From positions 928,001-992,000 of the forward strand of contig CAWCPV010000003.1 of assembly GCA_963797555.1 (NCBI GenBank): a stretch of 64,000 bases of DNA. Direction: 5' to 3'. Source of the DNA: an uncultured Gammaproteobacteria bacterium (GTDB taxonomy: Bacteria; Pseudomonadota; Gammaproteobacteria; CAWCPV01). The notes under the pieces were generated by a model. The model was not told the origin of the DNA. It searched no databases and worked only from the letters and a program-made list of their open reading frames with translations. Made by a program: the position numbers and the translations under genes. This document shows, one piece after another, positions 3,435-64,000 of this stretch. Numbering within the stretch: the first letter of the stretch is position 1; each line of letters opens with the position of its first letter.

Positions 3435-3983
3435 TCAGAGGAATACCGCCGGCACGCCGGTGTAGCCGTACAGCCGATCGTGGAAGATCTCGCCGTTGGC
3501 AAAGAACCCTACCAGCGGGAAGTCCCCGAGCACAGCCGTTCAGGTCCCGGATCGAGCGCGCCATGAGGTGTGCGATCTGGATCTCGGCCGGGTCACCGTG
3601 CACCACGGCGAACCGAGCGTCCCGGCGCTCGCACCAGGCGCCGTGTTGCGCGTGGAAGCTCTCCAGATCCGTGTCCGCCGGGATGGGTTCGAACACTCGA
3701 AAGGCATCGGTGGGCAGGCTCGCTATCAGGGCCGCTATGGCAGGACGTTCCAAGTGCTCCCGCCCGGTCGTGCTGATGCCGACGCCCACGGTCCCGACCC
3801 AGTGCTCGACGCCCGATCCTGTGTGCACGCGCATCAGGATCTCCGGTACGTACTCGGCCCAGAGGTCGCTCACGTACAGGAAACCGAGGCCCCTCGGGGG
3901 ACATCCCGCAGGTCCGCGATGCAATCGTAACCCGCTTGACGCCAATCGCCGGCGCTGGCGTGTGCCGCAGAGAACATCGTCAT
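3435..3983 (-). pseudogene. FIST-domain signal protein remnant (frameshift plus internal deletion)
   Basis: N-terminus MTMFSAAHAS...; after a frameshift near 3890, LGFLYVSD...WVGTVGVG...FAVVHGDP; then directly the FIST C-terminus LGDFPLVGFFANGEIFHDRLYGYTGV in another frame. Confidence 0.75.
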
Positions 3984-4100
3984 GGCGGAAAAACCTGAGA
4001 TTACATTGGCGGGCCTGCGGTTATCGGCTAAGCTGAGCGGGCTCTGCGTCGATCGCGCCTCGGTGCCGACTCCTGGCGTGGCACGACCCCATGTTATGCG

Positions 4101-5291
4101 GTGAATACCATGACCATCAAGTCCTATCACCCGCCTGTCCGCACCCTGCTGGGGCCGGGGCCTTCGGATGTCCCCGCGCGTATCCTCGAGGCAATGTCGC
4201 GCCCCACGATCGGGCACCTGGATCCGGCTTTCCTGGATATGATGGATGAGCTGAAGTCCCTGCTGCAGTACGGCTTCCAGACGCGCAACCCCGTGACCCT
4301 TCCTGTCTCCGGCCCGGGGTCGGCCGGCATGGAAGCGTGCTTCGTGAACTTGCTGGAACCCGGGGACACCGTCGTCGTCTGCATCAACGGCGTCTTCGGG
4401 TCGCGCATGAGGGAAAACGTGGAGCGTTGCGGCGCCAACGCCATCGTCTTGGACACGCCCTGGGGACAAGCAGTGGACCCGAACCGGCTCGAGGACACCC
4501 TTAAGGGTGCACCCGCGGCGACGGTCGTGGCCTTCGTCCATGCCGAGACCTCGACCGGCGCTCTATCGGATGCCAAGACTCTGGCGCAGGTCGCTCAGCG
4601 CTACGACTGCCTCACTATCATGGACGCGGTCACGTCTTTGGGCGGCTGCCCCGTCCTGGTGGACGAATGGGGCATCGATGCGACGTACTCCGGCAGCCAG
4701 AAATGCCTCTCATGTACCCCCGGTTTGGCACCCCTTACCTTTGGCGAGCGGGCGATGGAGCGCATCAAGGCACGGCGCCACAAGGTGCAGAGCTGGTTCT
4801 TGGATGTCGGTCTGCTCACGGCATACTGGGGCACGGGCGCGCAACGCGCTTATCACCATACGGCGCCGATCAACGCGCTGTATGGGCTGCACGAGGCGCT
4901 GGTGATATTGCAGGAGGAGGGCCTGGAAAACGCGTGGGAGCGGCACCGCAGCAACCATGAGTTGCTGCGCGCCGGGATCGAGGCGATGGGATTGGACTTC
5001 CTGGTGCAGGAAGGCCAGCGCCTGCCGCAGCTGAACGCGATTCAAGTTCCGTCCGGAGCGGATGAGGCGGAGGTGCGCCGCTGTCTGCTCCAGGACTATT
5101 CGATCGAGATCGGCGCGGGCCTGGGCGTACTGGCCGGCAAGATCTGGCGCATCGGACTCATGGGGCACGGAAGCAAGCCCCGAAACGTTCGCCTGGTCTT
5201 GGGGGCGCTCGAGGATGCCCTGACCGCGCTCAAGGCGCCCGTCCGCCGGGGCATGGCCCAGCAGGCCGTGCGCTACATCCTCAGAGGCTAA
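4101..5291 (+). CDS. Alanine/serine-glyoxylate aminotransferase family (class V PLP enzyme)
   Basis: LLGPGPSDV, HAETSTG, DAVTSLGG, SGSQKCLS (PLP lysine), YHHTAP, WRIGLMG. Confidence 0.92.
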   Translation: MNTMTIKSYHPPVRTLLGPGPSDVPARILEAMSRPTIGHLDPAFLDMMDELKSLLQYGFQTRNPVTLPVSGPGSAGMEACFVNLLEPGDTVVVCINGVFGSRMRENVERCGANAIVLDTPWGQAVDPNRLEDTLKGAPAATVVAFVHAETSTGALSDAKTLAQVAQRYDCLTIMDAVTSLGGCPVLVDEWGIDATYSGSQKCLSCTPGLAPLTFGERAMERIKARRHKVQSWFLDVGLLTAYWGTGAQRAYHHTAPINALYGLHEALVILQEEGLENAWERHRSNHELLRAGIEAMGLDFLVQEGQRLPQLNAIQVPSGADEAEVRRCLLQDYSIEIGAGLGVLAGKIWRIGLMGHGSKPRNVRLVLGALEDALTALKAPVRRGMAQQAVRYILRG

Positions 5292-60770: not shown

Positions 60771-61328
60771 ATGTTCCAGCCCCCCGTCACTCTCTACACC
60801 GCGGGCCACGGCAGCCGCAGCGCGGATGAGCTGGTCGCCCTGCTGCGTCAGGTCGGAATCGAGACCTTGGTAGACGTGCGCGCAAACCCCAGCTCCCGTC
60901 GCCACCCGCAGTTCGAGAGCGAGGCTCTGCGCACCAGCCTGGAGGAGGCGGCAATCGTCTATCACTGGGCCGGGCGACAGCTCGGCGGGCTGCGCGCTGT
61001 GGACCCGGCCTCACGCCACCTCGCCCTGCCCGCCGCCCTGCGGGGATATGGGGACCACATGGAGACCCCGGAGTTCCGGCGCGCAGCGGACCGGCTGGTC
61101 CATCTCGCCGGGAAGTCACGCACCGTGATCCTGTGCGCCGAGCGCCTGCCCGAGCGCTGCCACCGCTGCCTGATCGCCGATTATCTGACCGTACAAGGCA
61201 CGCGGGTGGTCCATCTGATCGACCGCGAGGTGCAGGCGGTGCATCGCGTGAGCGCCAGGCTCCATGTGGAGGCTGGAACACTGATCTACGACCTTGGATC
61301 CCAGCGGGGGCTATGCCTCGACTCGTAG
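60771..61328 (+). CDS. DUF488 family protein
   Basis: LYTAGHG, LVDVRANPSSR, LGGLR, LCAE....CHR..IAD. Confidence 0.9.
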   Translation: MFQPPVTLYTAGHGSRSADELVALLRQVGIETLVDVRANPSSRRHPQFESEALRTSLEEAAIVYHWAGRQLGGLRAVDPASRHLALPAALRGYGDHMETPEFRRAADRLVHLAGKSRTVILCAERLPERCHRCLIADYLTVQGTRVVHLIDREVQAVHRVSARLHVEAGTLIYDLGSQRGLCLDS

Positions 61329-61331
61329 CGG

Positions 61332-61853
61332 CGCCTTTTTGACCGCTCTCTGCAAGGACTTCTCGTCCAAGTGATGCCGGCGCTCCTTGTGGGAACGCGG
61401 GTCCATCGAGCGCTAGAGCGGCAGCCGCACGCACTCTGTGAACCGAAGACCGGCCCCGTACAGCAGGCTCGCCATGATGCAGATCCTCCCATCCAGCCGT
61501 GCCAGGAGCGCCCGTGTCTCCGCTTGCGTCAACACCACCGGGAGCCGGGCCGGGCGCTTCGCGCGGGTGAGATCGTCCATCCACCCGAGATCCTCTCCCA
61601 ACACCTCCCGGTACAGGAACACCAACGCCGAAAGCGCCTGGTTCTGCGTCGAGGCCGCCACCTTGCCCTCCACCGCCAGATGGCTGAGAAACCGCTCCAC
61701 CTCCTGCGCCCCCATCGAGGCGGGATGTTTGAGGCCGTGGAAACGGATGAAGCGTTTGATCCACTCCAGGTACGCGCGCTCGGTGCGGATGGCATAATGC
61801 TTCACCCGCAGCTTCTCGCGAACCTGGTCGAGCAGGCGGGGCTTGTCGGCCAT
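61332..61853 (-). pseudogene. intI: Integron integrase remnant
   Basis: LLDQVRE..R.KHY..RTE.AY, ASTQNQALSAL, RLPVVLT, LLYGAGLR, stop at 61413, then the IntI-specific insertion DPRSHKERRHHLDEKSLQRAVK; HxLR and catalytic Tyr region absent. Confidence 0.92.
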
Positions 61854-61957
61854 GACGGGGTGGTGTATAAGACGGGGCACGGAGTGGTTCGTTTGGGGGA
61901 CTACATGATAAGCCTCACAATGGATTCCGACAAGGGATAGCACGCTACATGCCACCG

Positions 61958-61986
61958 TTGCACGAATTTGTGGCGCCACTTAGGGT
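61958..61986 (+). promoter_or_regulatory. Candidate cassette promoter (Pc-like)
   Basis: TTGCAC-N17-TAGGGT just upstream of the attI crossover. Confidence 0.5.
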
Positions 61987-62004
61987 GTCGACTTCATGTT
62001 AGGC
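61987..62004 (+). mobile_element. attI recombination site (core G/TTAGGC)
   Basis: GTTRRRY core at 61998-62004, upstream of divergent intI, where base composition turns AT-rich; left boundary approximate. Confidence 0.75.
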
Positions 62005-62024
62005 ACTTCAACGGAGAGGAAACA

Positions 62025-62924
62025 GTGATAGTCAAGCAACTATTTTACGAAGCGGAGACGATAATAGCTCGGGCGCAGACAAGAAGCGAAAGTCAGGACT
62101 TTCAACGACAATACGAGATTATACGTACCCGAACGTGGGCTCGCGTTACAAGTGAGCCCGATATTCTTAACAGCTTGTTTGTTCAGGCGGCGAGCTATAG
62201 CGTCGTAAGGAAGTTTTTTGATATTCTTTACCCTGAAGATATATGGCGCCTTAACGATTACTATGGCACGAATTTCTTTAAACCAAAGGAAGTTCCCGCA
62301 CTTGATTATGATGGCTGGGTCAACGCTACCATTTCTTTGGGAAATGTACTCTTAAAAGAGGAAAAAATACGTCCGGTCGCTTCTCTTGAAGATGTGGTGT
62401 CCAGTCTCAAGTCCGCAAAACAACAAGAATGGAAGTCGTACACGAAGGAACCTAGGTTGCGAATCGTACTGTCTCTCGCCACAGGTCTTCCAAAAGTAAA
62501 AAGAGAGGTTATCGCTAACCCATCTCAATTCTTGGACAGACTAGATCATTTATCGAAGAGCAGCCCCGGAAGGGCGTTTGATTACGCAACCAAGTTTTCT
62601 CAAGGAATTATAGAAATGGGCAACGCACTCGTCTGTAATTTTTTCAAAGAGCTTGGTCTTCTGTATTACGTTAAGGTAGATGTACACGTCGGCGACTTTA
62701 TTAACAAAGTGTCGTTTTGCAAAGAATTTAGCAAGAGGGATGCCTTTATAATGAGCTGGCTGCTCGCAAGAGAGGCAAGAATGGAGCCATTCTTTCTGGA
62801 TAAGATATTGTATGTTGGAGGCAAGTATTTGAAGCCTCAAATGACAGAATTATTCAAGAAGCACAGAGAAGAATATATACGAGATATCAATTCCTTAACT
62901 TCGGAAATGCAAAAATATAGATAG
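62025..62924 (+). CDS. Cassette gene 1: HhH-type DNA glycosylase-like protein (299 aa)
   Basis: GTG start with GGAGAGG SD; IIEMGNALVCNFFKELG...KVDVHV resembles helix-hairpin-helix plus catalytic Asp; C-terminal P..LDKILY. Confidence 0.6.
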   Translation: MIVKQLFYEAETIIARAQTRSESQDFQRQYEIIRTRTWARVTSEPDILNSLFVQAASYSVVRKFFDILYPEDIWRLNDYYGTNFFKPKEVPALDYDGWVNATISLGNVLLKEEKIRPVASLEDVVSSLKSAKQQEWKSYTKEPRLRIVLSLATGLPKVKREVIANPSQFLDRLDHLSKSSPGRAFDYATKFSQGIIEMGNALVCNFFKELGLLYYVKVDVHVGDFINKVSFCKEFSKRDAFIMSWLLAREARMEPFFLDKILYVGGKYLKPQMTELFKKHREEYIRDINSLTSEMQKYR

Positions 62925-63062
62925 CTCTCAAACAATCTTCAGCTAATACCAGGCCACACTCAGAATTCACGGCAGCTGCAACTCTTGCTCAGGAATCTTT
63001 TCCAAAGTAGCACCAAGCAATCCTACGCGGTTGCCGCTGGCCGTGACCAAACGGAGGATATC

Positions 63063-63290
63063 ATGGCGTGGAACTGGAGTGAAACCAAGGCCCGGAAATT
63101 GATGCGCCGCAAACCCGTCCCCCTCGGCGACGGCGAGAACAGCAAAAAGGTCCAAGAACTGGCTAATCAGCTTATGCGCCAAGGGCACACCCGGCAAAAG
63201 GCATACGCAAAAGCCCGGGCCAAGCTGAATGAAGAGTATCGGAAAAAGGATGCAAGGTTTATTTCTGGAGGAAAGTGTAGTAAGAAATAG
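63063..63290 (+). CDS. Cassette gene 2: small basic helical protein (75 aa)
   Basis: GGAGG SD; Lys/Arg-rich MAWNWSETKARKLMRRK... Confidence 0.7.
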   Translation: MAWNWSETKARKLMRRKPVPLGDGENSKKVQELANQLMRQGHTRQKAYAKARAKLNEEYRKKDARFISGGKCSKK

Positions 63291-63434
63291 TTCGGAGCAG
63301 ACATACATCCGTCTTGTCGGCTTGATGATCCGAATTGGATTTCCGATCAACCGAAGAAACGGGGATGCATAAAGATTTTGCACCACAGGAATGAGGAGTT
63401 CATTAACTTTTAGGCCGAACATTGGGGTAATCAC

Positions 63435-63797
63435 ATGAATGCAAATATACCAGTCTCTCCGAGCGTAATCGGCACGCTCTTAGAGTCGGTTGCAAAGCGT
63501 CGTAGCCAAATATACTACAGTCGCATTGTTGAGCAGTTTGGCTTCCCACCGCTGGATGGAGCATGGAGCTCACATCCCCTTGCGCAAGTCTTCGAAGTGT
63601 TAGATCAGCAGGACGCAGTGGCAAATCGACCGTTCCGCACGTCAGTAGTTGTAGCGGTCGGATCGAATCGGCCTGGCAACGGATTTTACGAAGCGCTTCA
63701 CCGTCTGAAGAACATTCCTGACCCAGGAACGCAAAATGCTTGGGATGCCATTTGGGCCGCAGAGATGCAAGCGGCTCACAGTTACAATTGGCCATGA
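63435..63797 (+). CDS. Cassette gene 3: 120-aa hypothetical protein
   Basis: L..VA.....IYYS.I, RPFRTSVVV....RPGNGFY; stop 43 nt before the attC. Confidence 0.8.
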   Translation: MNANIPVSPSVIGTLLESVAKRRSQIYYSRIVEQFGFPPLDGAWSSHPLAQVFEVLDQQDAVANRPFRTSVVVAVGSNRPGNGFYEALHRLKNIPDPGTQNAWDAIWAAEMQAAHSYNWP

Positions 63798-63839
63798 ACG
63801 AGACCCGGAGAATCAGGTGGGTCCGCGTTTCGAAGAGAC

Positions 63840-63914
63840 GCCTAACCATCACTTCCAGCCGACCGCTCCAGTCGCTGCGCTCCTTGCGCGATCGGCTGAA
63901 GTGAGCCGTTAGGA
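63840..63914 (+). mobile_element. attC site (75 bp)
   Basis: R'' GCCTAAC, L'' arm TCACTTCCAGCCGA, L' arm TCGGCTGAAGTGA (one extrahelical base), R' GTTAGGA. Confidence 0.93.
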
Positions 63915-63930
63915 TGTACGAGAGCTACAT

Positions 63931-64000
63931 ATGAGCGAATCACTACAGGCCGCCTTCATTGCCCTGGCGGGGGTTGCTCTTGGTGGCGTCTTAACAGGCT
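63931..64000 (+). CDS. Start of the next cassette ORF (N-terminal TM), cut by the window edge
   Basis: MSESLQAAFIALAGVALGGVLTG immediately after attC. Confidence 0.65.
   Translation, partial: MSESLQAAFIALAGVALGGVLTG

Follow-up and report, generated by a model that had tools for sequence, protein, structure and literature searches.

A three-gene integron cassette, apparently fused from once-separate units and led by a Dag-like HhH glycosylase candidate, in an uncultured gammaproteobacterium

A stretch of 64,000 nucleotides from the genome of an uncultured gammaproteobacterium (genome G000, contig C3, positions 928001-992000; hereafter the window) contains in its last 2.6 kb the beginning of a small integron, the first unit of which is a block of ~1.9 kb (61998-63914, plus strand) that extends from the attI crossover to the first attC recombination site and carries three open reading frames (ORFs). 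ORF1 (62025-62924, 299 amino acids) is a glycosylase-like protein with the HhH-GPD fold, ORF2 (63063-63290, 75 amino acids) is a basic protein of no known family, and ORF3 (63435-63797, 120 amino acids) is small, mostly helical and winged-helix-like; all three lie on the plus strand. An earlier interpretation, made by a model from the letters of this DNA (hereafter the sequence-only reading), had described the block as one cassette bearing a candidate three-gene anti-phage module. As the sequence stands the three ORFs indeed form one recombination unit, because no attC is recognised between attI and the first attC. However, it is unlikely that the three proteins act jointly, and we lean towards the view that the block consists of fused, once-separate cassettes whose attCs have decayed or been lost, led by a stand-alone glycosylase candidate resembling the Dag proteins of Vibrio integrons.

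Both ends of the block could be placed with independent evidence. The left end is the attI crossover box GTTAGGC (61998-62004, plus strand), which is fixed independently of motif reading by comparison with a second integron, located on contig C7 of the same genome: the intI'-attI segment of C7 is 98.5% identical to positions 61421-62002 of the window, and the two sequences part immediately past CATGTTAG, where GTTAG is followed by GCACTT in the window and by AGCGCA on C7. The first cassettes of the two integrons are unlike each other. The right end is the first canonical attC (attC1; 63840-63914, plus strand), with the R'' box GCCTAAC and the R' box GTTAGGA, which is identified by its pattern, by its hairpin fold (z -3.6 for one strand and -3.9 for the other, with 0 of 200 shuffled sequences folding as well) and by its scores with two covariance models described below, namely 23.6 bits with R2, in whose training set it was not included, and 38.6 bits with R3. 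The positions that the sequence-only reading had given for attI (61998) and for the first attC (63840) therefore hold. It had also pointed to the complementarity of GTTAGGC at attI and GCCTAAC at attC1; this is present in the sequence, but it is the consensus of every site in the array and adds no evidence that the two sites belong together. In all, three attCs were found in the array with a relaxed pattern, which was applied also to L005, a sequence extending past the end of the window (in window coordinates 63840-63914, 64375-64462 and 65408-65500). The strict regular expression for attC gave no match, the R' boxes of this array having an A as their last base.

The interior of the block was searched with covariance models built in an iterative manner. 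The initial model, R1, was based on ten near-uniform attCs from two other arrays (alignment A4) and turned out to be too narrow, as it missed two of the window's three attCs; it was followed by R2, built from 22 R1 matches (A6) with the window attCs not among them, and by R3, built from 31 R2 matches (A7) with the window's own sites included. An alignment of mixed-length attCs made with MAFFT (A3) was discarded as structurally inconsistent. R2 was run over 73,916 bases and R3 over positions 1-5200 of L005, in both cases with the filters off. R2 recovers the three attCs of the window array at 23.6, 33.6 and 33.5 bits (E 1e-3 to 2e-6) and, with scores of 14-80 bits, also picks up attCs of other phyla that have diverged and measure 58-135 nt; the three sites of the window array score 38.6-48.7 bits with R3. 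Between positions 62005 and 63837, R2 finds no match at E <= 10, and the top R3 match inside the block reaches 4.8 bits (E 8.7), compared with at least 38.6 bits for the real attCs. A permissive Rfam scan of 61300-64000 returned three chance matches and no attC family, Rfam being without a usable attC model. Thus, the block has a left crossover and one right attC, with none recognisable inside. The earlier statements that no canonical attC intervenes and that the ORFs travel as one cassette are upheld in this sense, including by the covariance-model search that had been named as a way to refute them.

The two spacers within the block were also inspected individually. Spacer 1 (62925-63062) contains no attC; a restricted R3 search gave at most 2.9 bits, the attC-like pair CTGCAAC...GTTGCCG (62976-63036) scores 1.5 bits, and a weak imperfect palindrome (62967-63046) has fold z values of -1.9 and -1.6, indistinct from those of shuffled sequences. 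Spacer 2 (63291-63408) likewise contains no attC, the best R3 scores being 4.8 bits for the minus strand and, at 63365-63417 of the plus strand, 2.7 bits. The latter corresponds to the attC-like pair GCATAAA...TTTAGGC (63367-63415, 2.7 bits), in which the changes AAC>AAA and GTT>TTT remain complementary, and which lacks the conserved crossover G and the L''/L' stem. With fold z values of -1.0 and -1.6, spacer 2 folds no better than shuffled sequence; it is possibly the decayed attC of the upstream unit.

At the end of spacer 2 a trace of a former boundary is preserved. The sequence tTTAGGC (63409-63415, plus strand), 19 nt upstream of the start codon of ORF3, is an R' box with a G to T change at the crossover base, and it aligns with GTTAGGC, the R' box of the attC located in front of the ORF3 homologue in a Phycisphaerae cassette (L023): the window reads TAACT-TTTAGGC-CGAACATTGGGGTAATCACATG, and L023 reads GGAC-GTTAGGC-GGCAATATTGAGGAAATCATATG. 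From TTAGGC (63410-63415) to the ATG, 23 of 29 columns are identical, and the coding DNA of ORF3 matches that of L023 at 267 of 363 positions; upstream of TTAGGC the identity falls to the random level (2/20, 10/40 and 21/80 positions). The homology starts exactly at the canonical cassette start (G/TTRRRY), and TTAGGC occurs only four times on the plus strand of the whole 64 kb window, attI being one of the occurrences. Since the similarity to L023 begins at a cassette start whose crossover G is now T, ORF3 must formerly have been a cassette of its own, and the attC that preceded it is lost or past recognition. The junction between ORF2 and ORF3 is accordingly an old cassette boundary, and the junction between ORF1 and ORF2 was presumably another.

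ORF3 recurs elsewhere as a single-gene integron cassette. Its homologue lies between two attCs in L026 (gene 4001-4357, attCs 3916-3979 and 4451-4513) and in L029 (gene 1151-1483, attCs 1028-1091 and 1530-1602), and in L023 (gene 4001-4360, 78% identical) it directly follows the attC at 3888-3982. In L024, from Peristeroidobacter soli, the one attC pattern in the vicinity (4759-4830; 14.5 bits, E 0.25) lies ~400 nt downstream of the ORF3 homologue, and at the expected attC place before the gene there is a mini-palindrome, GTCTAC-ATTATA-GTTAGAC (3960-3985), possibly an attC reduced to its two outer boxes, which would be another route to cassette fusion.

The association of the three genes was then judged by co-occurrence. 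In 14 loci with an ORF1 homologue, taken from a metagenome scan, tblastn with the three proteins at E <= 1 recovered ORF1 in 14/14, ORF2 in 0/14 and ORF3 in 0/14; at least 700 bp is available downstream of the ORF1 homologue in ten of these loci, two of the 14 have only a distant homologue (27% identity), and L017 is nearly a duplicate of L018. A pattern search around the ORF1 homologues in these 14 loci found no flanking attC. Among eight loci with an ORF3 homologue, taken from a genome scan (one of them a marginal match of 22 residues), none has a homologue of ORF1 or ORF2, the best stray ORF1 match having E 0.22. The behaviour expected of a conserved multi-gene system is therefore seen at neither set of loci. 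The neighbourhood comparison that the sequence-only reading had proposed finds the trio together in none of the examined loci, and this result, the lone ORF3 cassettes in L026 and L029 and the relic boundary leave its three-gene module without support.

These observations bear on two other accounts of the block. According to one, the three genes are a co-adapted defence module, comprising a glycosylase, a small basic protein and a DNA-binding partner, which was captured as a single cassette. It would agree with the lack of an attC inside the block, with the common orientation of the three genes and the plausible ribosome-binding sites visible for all of them, with the winged-helix-like model of ORF3, and with the existence of two-gene defence cassettes, of which this genome has one (cassette 3, with a 99.5% identical duplicate on C7) and V. 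cholerae others (Sucellos and Toutatis, as given in the available part of 10.1101/2024.07.02.601686). We nevertheless consider it highly improbable, because the trio is together in none of the 14 ORF1 loci and none of the eight ORF3 loci, ORF3 stands alone in cassettes elsewhere and is preceded here by a relic boundary, the GC content of ORF1 (0.42) is unlike that of ORF2 and ORF3 (0.52 each), and the N-terminal extensions found in long ORF1 homologues are unlike both small proteins. Just as improbable, in our opinion, is the notion that the fusion was selected because ORF2 and ORF3 tune or partner the ORF1 enzyme. The other account holds that the block still consists of three mobile cassettes with attCs too atypical for our models. 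The models do derive from a set of just 31 attCs, drawn from six loci that represent five arrays, two of which belong to this genome, Rfam offers no attC model as a cross-check, and each spacer contains a weak attC-like pair, the second with changes that stay complementary. However, R2 found diverged attCs at 14 bits and above, whereas both candidate pairs stay below 3 bits, the second lacks the crossover G and the L''/L' stem, and neither spacer folds better than shuffled sequence, which makes this account quite improbable as well. Fusion of separate cassettes faces difficulties of its own, too. No remnant of an attC could be demonstrated in the interval from ORF1 to ORF2, so that an original two-gene ORF1+ORF2 cassette is possible; L025, L027 and L028 have no attC near the ORF3 homologue in the R2 search; and the co-occurrence counts rest on the ORF1 and ORF3 loci, with the contexts of the three ORF2 homologues, the closest ORF1 homologues (P0001-P0003, 64-68% identity) and the closest ORF2 and ORF3 homologues (on short contigs) outside the loci compared, so that the trio may yet recur in near relatives. 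For the fusion that we favour, three formerly separate cassette genes would have become one unit by decay or loss of the intervening attCs, and the block would now be mobile solely by recombination between attI and attC1, catalysed in trans.

The protein at the head of the block, ORF1, was analysed at the level of structure and sequence. Its AlphaFold2 model, based on an alignment of 30 homologues, is all-helical and confident, with a predicted local distance difference test (pLDDT) score of 93 and a predicted template-modelling (pTM) score of 0.90. Structure comparison with VIA-align places it closest to the 8-oxoguanine glycosylases of the Ogg2 group, with Z values of 11.6 to 3knt, 11.5 to 3fhf, 11.3 to 3fhg and 11.2 to 3n0u (root-mean-square deviation 3.8-4.0, with 181-193 residues aligned of 205-214), followed by EndoIII, OGG1, NTHL1, AlkA and Mag1 with Z values near 9; every one of the 50 entries among the matches listed is an HhH glycosylase. 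As VIA-align itself warns that helical models can reach Z ~11 by chance, support was sought in the sequence. A profile of the wider ORF1 family (A9), compared with the PDB, matches SsOgg (3fhg) with E 1.6e-4 and MjOgg with E 0.1, aligning IkgvGpaLvCdFlKelG..yvKvDvHl with IKGIGMQEASHFLRNVG..AIIDRHI of SsOgg, so that the motif core GxaLxCdFlKelG...vKvDvH pairs with GIGMQEASHFLRNVG...IIDRHI.

In ORF1 itself the motif occupies residues 198-222 (MGNALVCNFFKELGLLYYVKVDVHV). When the profile is aligned to 3fhg, 3knt and 3fhf, G199 falls on the Gly of the hairpin and D219 on the aspartate of IIDRHI, which we take to be the catalytic Asp of HhH-GPD glycosylases. L202, K217 and D219 show no variation among the 30 diverse members of A9, and 90% or more of these members share G199, F206, K208, G211 and H221. 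A201 aligns with a residue that is K in one MjOgg entry (3fhf) and Q in the other (3knt), at the position of what is presumably the Schiff-base lysine, and the consensus of the ORF1 family has no Lys in this column. ORF1 thus exhibits the two-lobed helical fold of the HhH-GPD superfamily and a hairpin followed ~20 residues on by an Asp, and it has no Schiff-base Lys in the second HhH helix of the kind expected in a bifunctional glycosylase with apurinic/apyrimidinic (AP) lyase activity. From the predicted structure and the profile we assign ORF1 to the HhH-GPD fold, and since the hairpin and D219 are kept while the lysine of the lyases is absent, we predict that it acts as a monofunctional DNA glycosylase. 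The resemblance of KVDVHV and its surroundings to an HhH-GPD hairpin with a catalytic Asp, proposed in the sequence-only reading, is borne out, as regards fold and motif, by the Z values, the profile match and the invariance of D219.

The ORF1 family is small and patchy: a word-indexed search returned 42 homologues at E <= 0.001, and an exhaustive search among 1.84 billion representatives returned 68 representative clusters at 50% identity. Two distant partial matches to the family were found in viral contigs, where ORF2 had no match. The genes next to ORF1 homologues differ from locus to locus, and some of them are related to defence. In L013 (4359-8980) the ORF1 homologue is followed, with a 4-nt overlap, by genes that PADLOC assigns to ZacA (E 4.9e-131) and ZacB (E 1.1e-178), which makes it possible that the glycosylase-like family and the Zac system are linked there in one operon. 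In L017 and L018 a PDC-S32/AbiJ_NTD4 gene lies upstream of the homologue, in L011 a nearby MBL-fold protein matches the LmuA, RTasMBL and Avs1a models, and in L014 a PIN protein is located nearby. Some homologues have an N-terminal extension of 110-190 residues without a Pfam match, and the homologue in L013 also has a long one. BLASTP of these extensions revealed no similarity to ORF2 or ORF3, so the long homologues were rejected as fusions with either.

If ORF1 is a glycosylase, it would flip a base into its pocket, where a water molecule activated by the Asp would cut the N-glycosidic bond, and it would leave abasic sites, to be broken by AP endonucleases of the host. Its location in an integron and the defence genes beside its homologues suggest as the likeliest role phage defence by this one gene, through action on a modified base of the phage, as in the case of the published Dag glycosylases. 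Several results weigh against this interpretation or its structural basis. Foldseek found nothing for ORF1 at E <= 0.001; its top rows, with E 0.14-0.3 (0.14-0.8 among those listed) and probability above 0.9, are 8-oxoguanine glycosylases, so that of the AlphaFold and Foldseek check proposed earlier, it is VIA-align and the profile that uphold the HhH fold, the best E of Foldseek alone being 0.14. No Pfam family matches ORF1 at E <= 1, the HhH-GPD and Ogg-HhH models included, and a profile of close homologues (A1) gives chance matches in the PDB (E >= 0.72), with no glycosylase among them. On the other hand, two distant homologues among the 35 scanned reach PF22175 (Ogg-HhH) with 17.7 and 22.2 bits, under the cut-off of 27 bits, and the neighbours of ORF1 in the protein atlas include Ogg-HhH and Adenine_glyco clusters; a comparison alignment for PF22175 from 41 genomes of the phylum was abandoned, as three matches were too few. 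The missing lysine would also be compatible with a protein that binds DNA but does not catalyse, and the tie of the family to phages comes from genomic context and analogy. It is thus conceivable, if on the whole unlikely, that ORF1 is no immune effector but either a horizontally mobile glycosylase that repairs alkylated or oxidised bases or an HhH protein that binds DNA and is catalytically dead: its nearest folds are those of the repair enzymes Ogg2, EndoIII, AlkA and Mag1, the Schiff-base Lys is absent, the homologue in L015 sits in a housekeeping neighbourhood, and ORF1 has no match in PADLOC. The small and patchy family, the integron location here, the ZacAB, PDC-S32 and MBL-effector genes beside homologues elsewhere, and the complete or near invariance of D219, K217 and H221, which points to a functional site, speak against it. 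Returning to ORF1 as an anti-phage glycosylase, we suggest, rather tentatively, that it founds an undescribed lysine-less branch of HhH glycosylases, which would act as lone anti-phage effectors on a phage base other than those of Dag and Brig1, and of which some members would have gained a DNA-binding-like N-terminal extension or an operon link to ZacAB.

ORF2 and ORF3 are, as we see it, independent cargo. The common orientation and the lengths of the three ORFs were given correctly in the earlier reading, as was their AT-richness, with GC contents of 0.42 for ORF1 and 0.52 for both ORF2 and ORF3, against 0.64 for the window. ORF1 and ORF2 have no family match in Pfam, NCBIfam, PADLOC or PHROGs, ORF3 has none in Pfam, and tblastn against 72,556 plasmids returned no match for any of the three; a scan of promoters and terminators gave none above shuffled expectation. 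ORF2 has three homologous clusters besides itself (69-85% identity). ORF3 has 22 homologues (52-80% identity), with source names including Vibrio parahaemolyticus, Methylomonas and Pseudoalteromonas. Its model is small, helical and confident (pLDDT 90); Foldseek found no convincing structural relative (E >= 1.3), and the best VIA-align Z is 4.6, at which winged-helix proteins and alkyltransferase C-domains tie. A relationship to the MGMT/ATL family, whose PF01035-type domain has a PCHRV loop, received no clear support: the Z values of 4.0-4.6 to 4bhb, 1eh6 and 2kim (82-84 residues aligned) are level with those of generic winged-helix proteins, hhalign of the ORF3 profile (A2) against 20 PF01035 domains gave 12% probability, and there was no support from Pfam, PDB profiles or the protein atlas. 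That ORF3 binds DNA is a weak guess.

The integron to which the block belongs has lost its integrase. The window retains a truncated intI (61413-61853, minus strand) of 146 amino acids followed by a stop, which comprises the N-terminal SAM-like domain alone (PF13495, E 2.5e-34) and covers positions 1-138 of the 315 of TIGR02249 at 185.7 bits (cut-off 265). Beyond its stop, at 61296-61412, lies a fragment of 39 residues with a TAG inside, corresponding to positions 223-261 of the integrase and reaching the 3' end of a DUF488 gene (60771-61328), from which it follows that the integrase has undergone an internal deletion besides the truncation. An intact intI is found on C7 (47556-48500; TIGR02249, 502.5 bits against the same cut-off), in an integron with five attCs (L006 13754-17971, minus strand). 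The two integrons have in common not only the near-identical intI'-attI segment but also a stretch of cassettes: L005 3447-4928, which takes in a two-ORF cassette and a portion of the unit after it, matches the C7 array over 1,483 bp with 99.5% identity. The integron of the window is therefore a partly duplicated, integrase-dead sister of that on C7, and the two-ORF cassette common to both implies that two-gene cassettes move as units in this genome. Two further stretches, C14:447720-447876 and C5:269629-269724, resemble the attI-proximal region at 77-80% identity and have no integrase N-terminus in their vicinity, and a lone attC is located on C5 (L008 6917-6977, 27.9 bits); these may be additional degraded integron remnants. 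In an order-wide search, the order of this organism was represented by this genome only.

Downstream of the block, the array continues with a 149-residue ORF, the two-ORF cassette and a fourth unit interrupted by an insertion sequence. The two-gene cassette (L005 3463-4500, corresponding to window coordinates 64463-65500, past the window end), present in both integrons, encodes a SWIM-like protein of 114 residues (PF04434, E 0.0011; PADLOC PDC-S62, E 3.1e-9; phrog_13130) and a protein of 195 residues that matches phrog_36782 (E 2.3e-30). Compared with the ORF1-ORF3 block, it is the more plausible candidate for a genuine multi-gene cassette system. The fourth cassette diverges from its C7 counterpart at L005 4928 (the region L005 4928-6530 again lies past the window end) and is followed by a minus-strand gene for a DDE transposase of 452 residues (PF01609/DUF772), and we therefore regard the array as probably truncated by the insertion sequence.

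If ORF1 proves to be an active lysine-less defence glycosylase, it would add a non-Vibrio family to glycosylase immunity and could point to a new target modification. The fused trio, in turn, is a clean natural example of how decay of attCs would turn independent cassettes into one unit, and screens that delimit units by attC alone would misread such a block as a multi-gene system. Current concepts are left unchanged by either point.

Fused cassettes that arose through partial or total loss of an attC are described as rare in the available part of PMC4670013, and the block resembles them in that loss of the upstream attC makes one recombination unit of two or more ORFs. In contrast to those cases, as far as they are presented there, which come from class 1 resistance integrons, it belongs to a chromosomal integron whose integrase is dead and unites three ORFs, with one of the two internal boundaries demonstrable. 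With the two-gene defence cassettes Sucellos and Toutatis of V. cholerae (Darracq et al., 10.1101/2024.07.02.601686) it shares the presence of more than one gene between two recombination sites of a chromosomal integron; according to the part of that report available, both pairs co-localise wherever they occur, Toutatis in 61 of 61 occurrences, for which reason it is treated as one system, unlike our trio, which was together in none of the loci examined. The Ogg2 enzymes (MjOgg 3fhf/3knt, SsOgg 3fhg and TM1821 3n0u) provide the best structural matches of ORF1 and its sole significant profile match, and they have in common with it the HhH hairpin and the D-x-H motif; unlike them, ORF1 is ~90 residues longer, only 9-11% identical, without the catalytic Lys, below the PF22175 threshold, and mobile, whereas Ogg2 is a core enzyme. 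As regards function, the nearest precedent is offered by Dag1 and Dag2, unannotated integron proteins of V. parahaemolyticus with an HhH glycosylase fold, each of which, by the available portion of the preprint of Getz et al. (bioRxiv 10.1101/2025.10.29.685425), defends alone against phages whose bases are of the 7-deazaguanine type; protection is reported there also for 17 of 22 further structural families encoded in integrons. In view of this work, the earlier description of the block as undescribed was too strong. In the same portion of the preprint Dag1 appears bifunctional, with K118 accompanied by D184 and W188, whereas ORF1 has an Ala at the canonical Lys position; its host is not a Vibrio, and the comparison is one of fold class and integron location. 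Within these terms, ORF1 resembles Dag1 and Dag2 as a single small HhH-fold protein, missed by ordinary sequence annotation, which is encoded in a cassette of a chromosomal integron, and both kinds are often found near defence or mobile genes.

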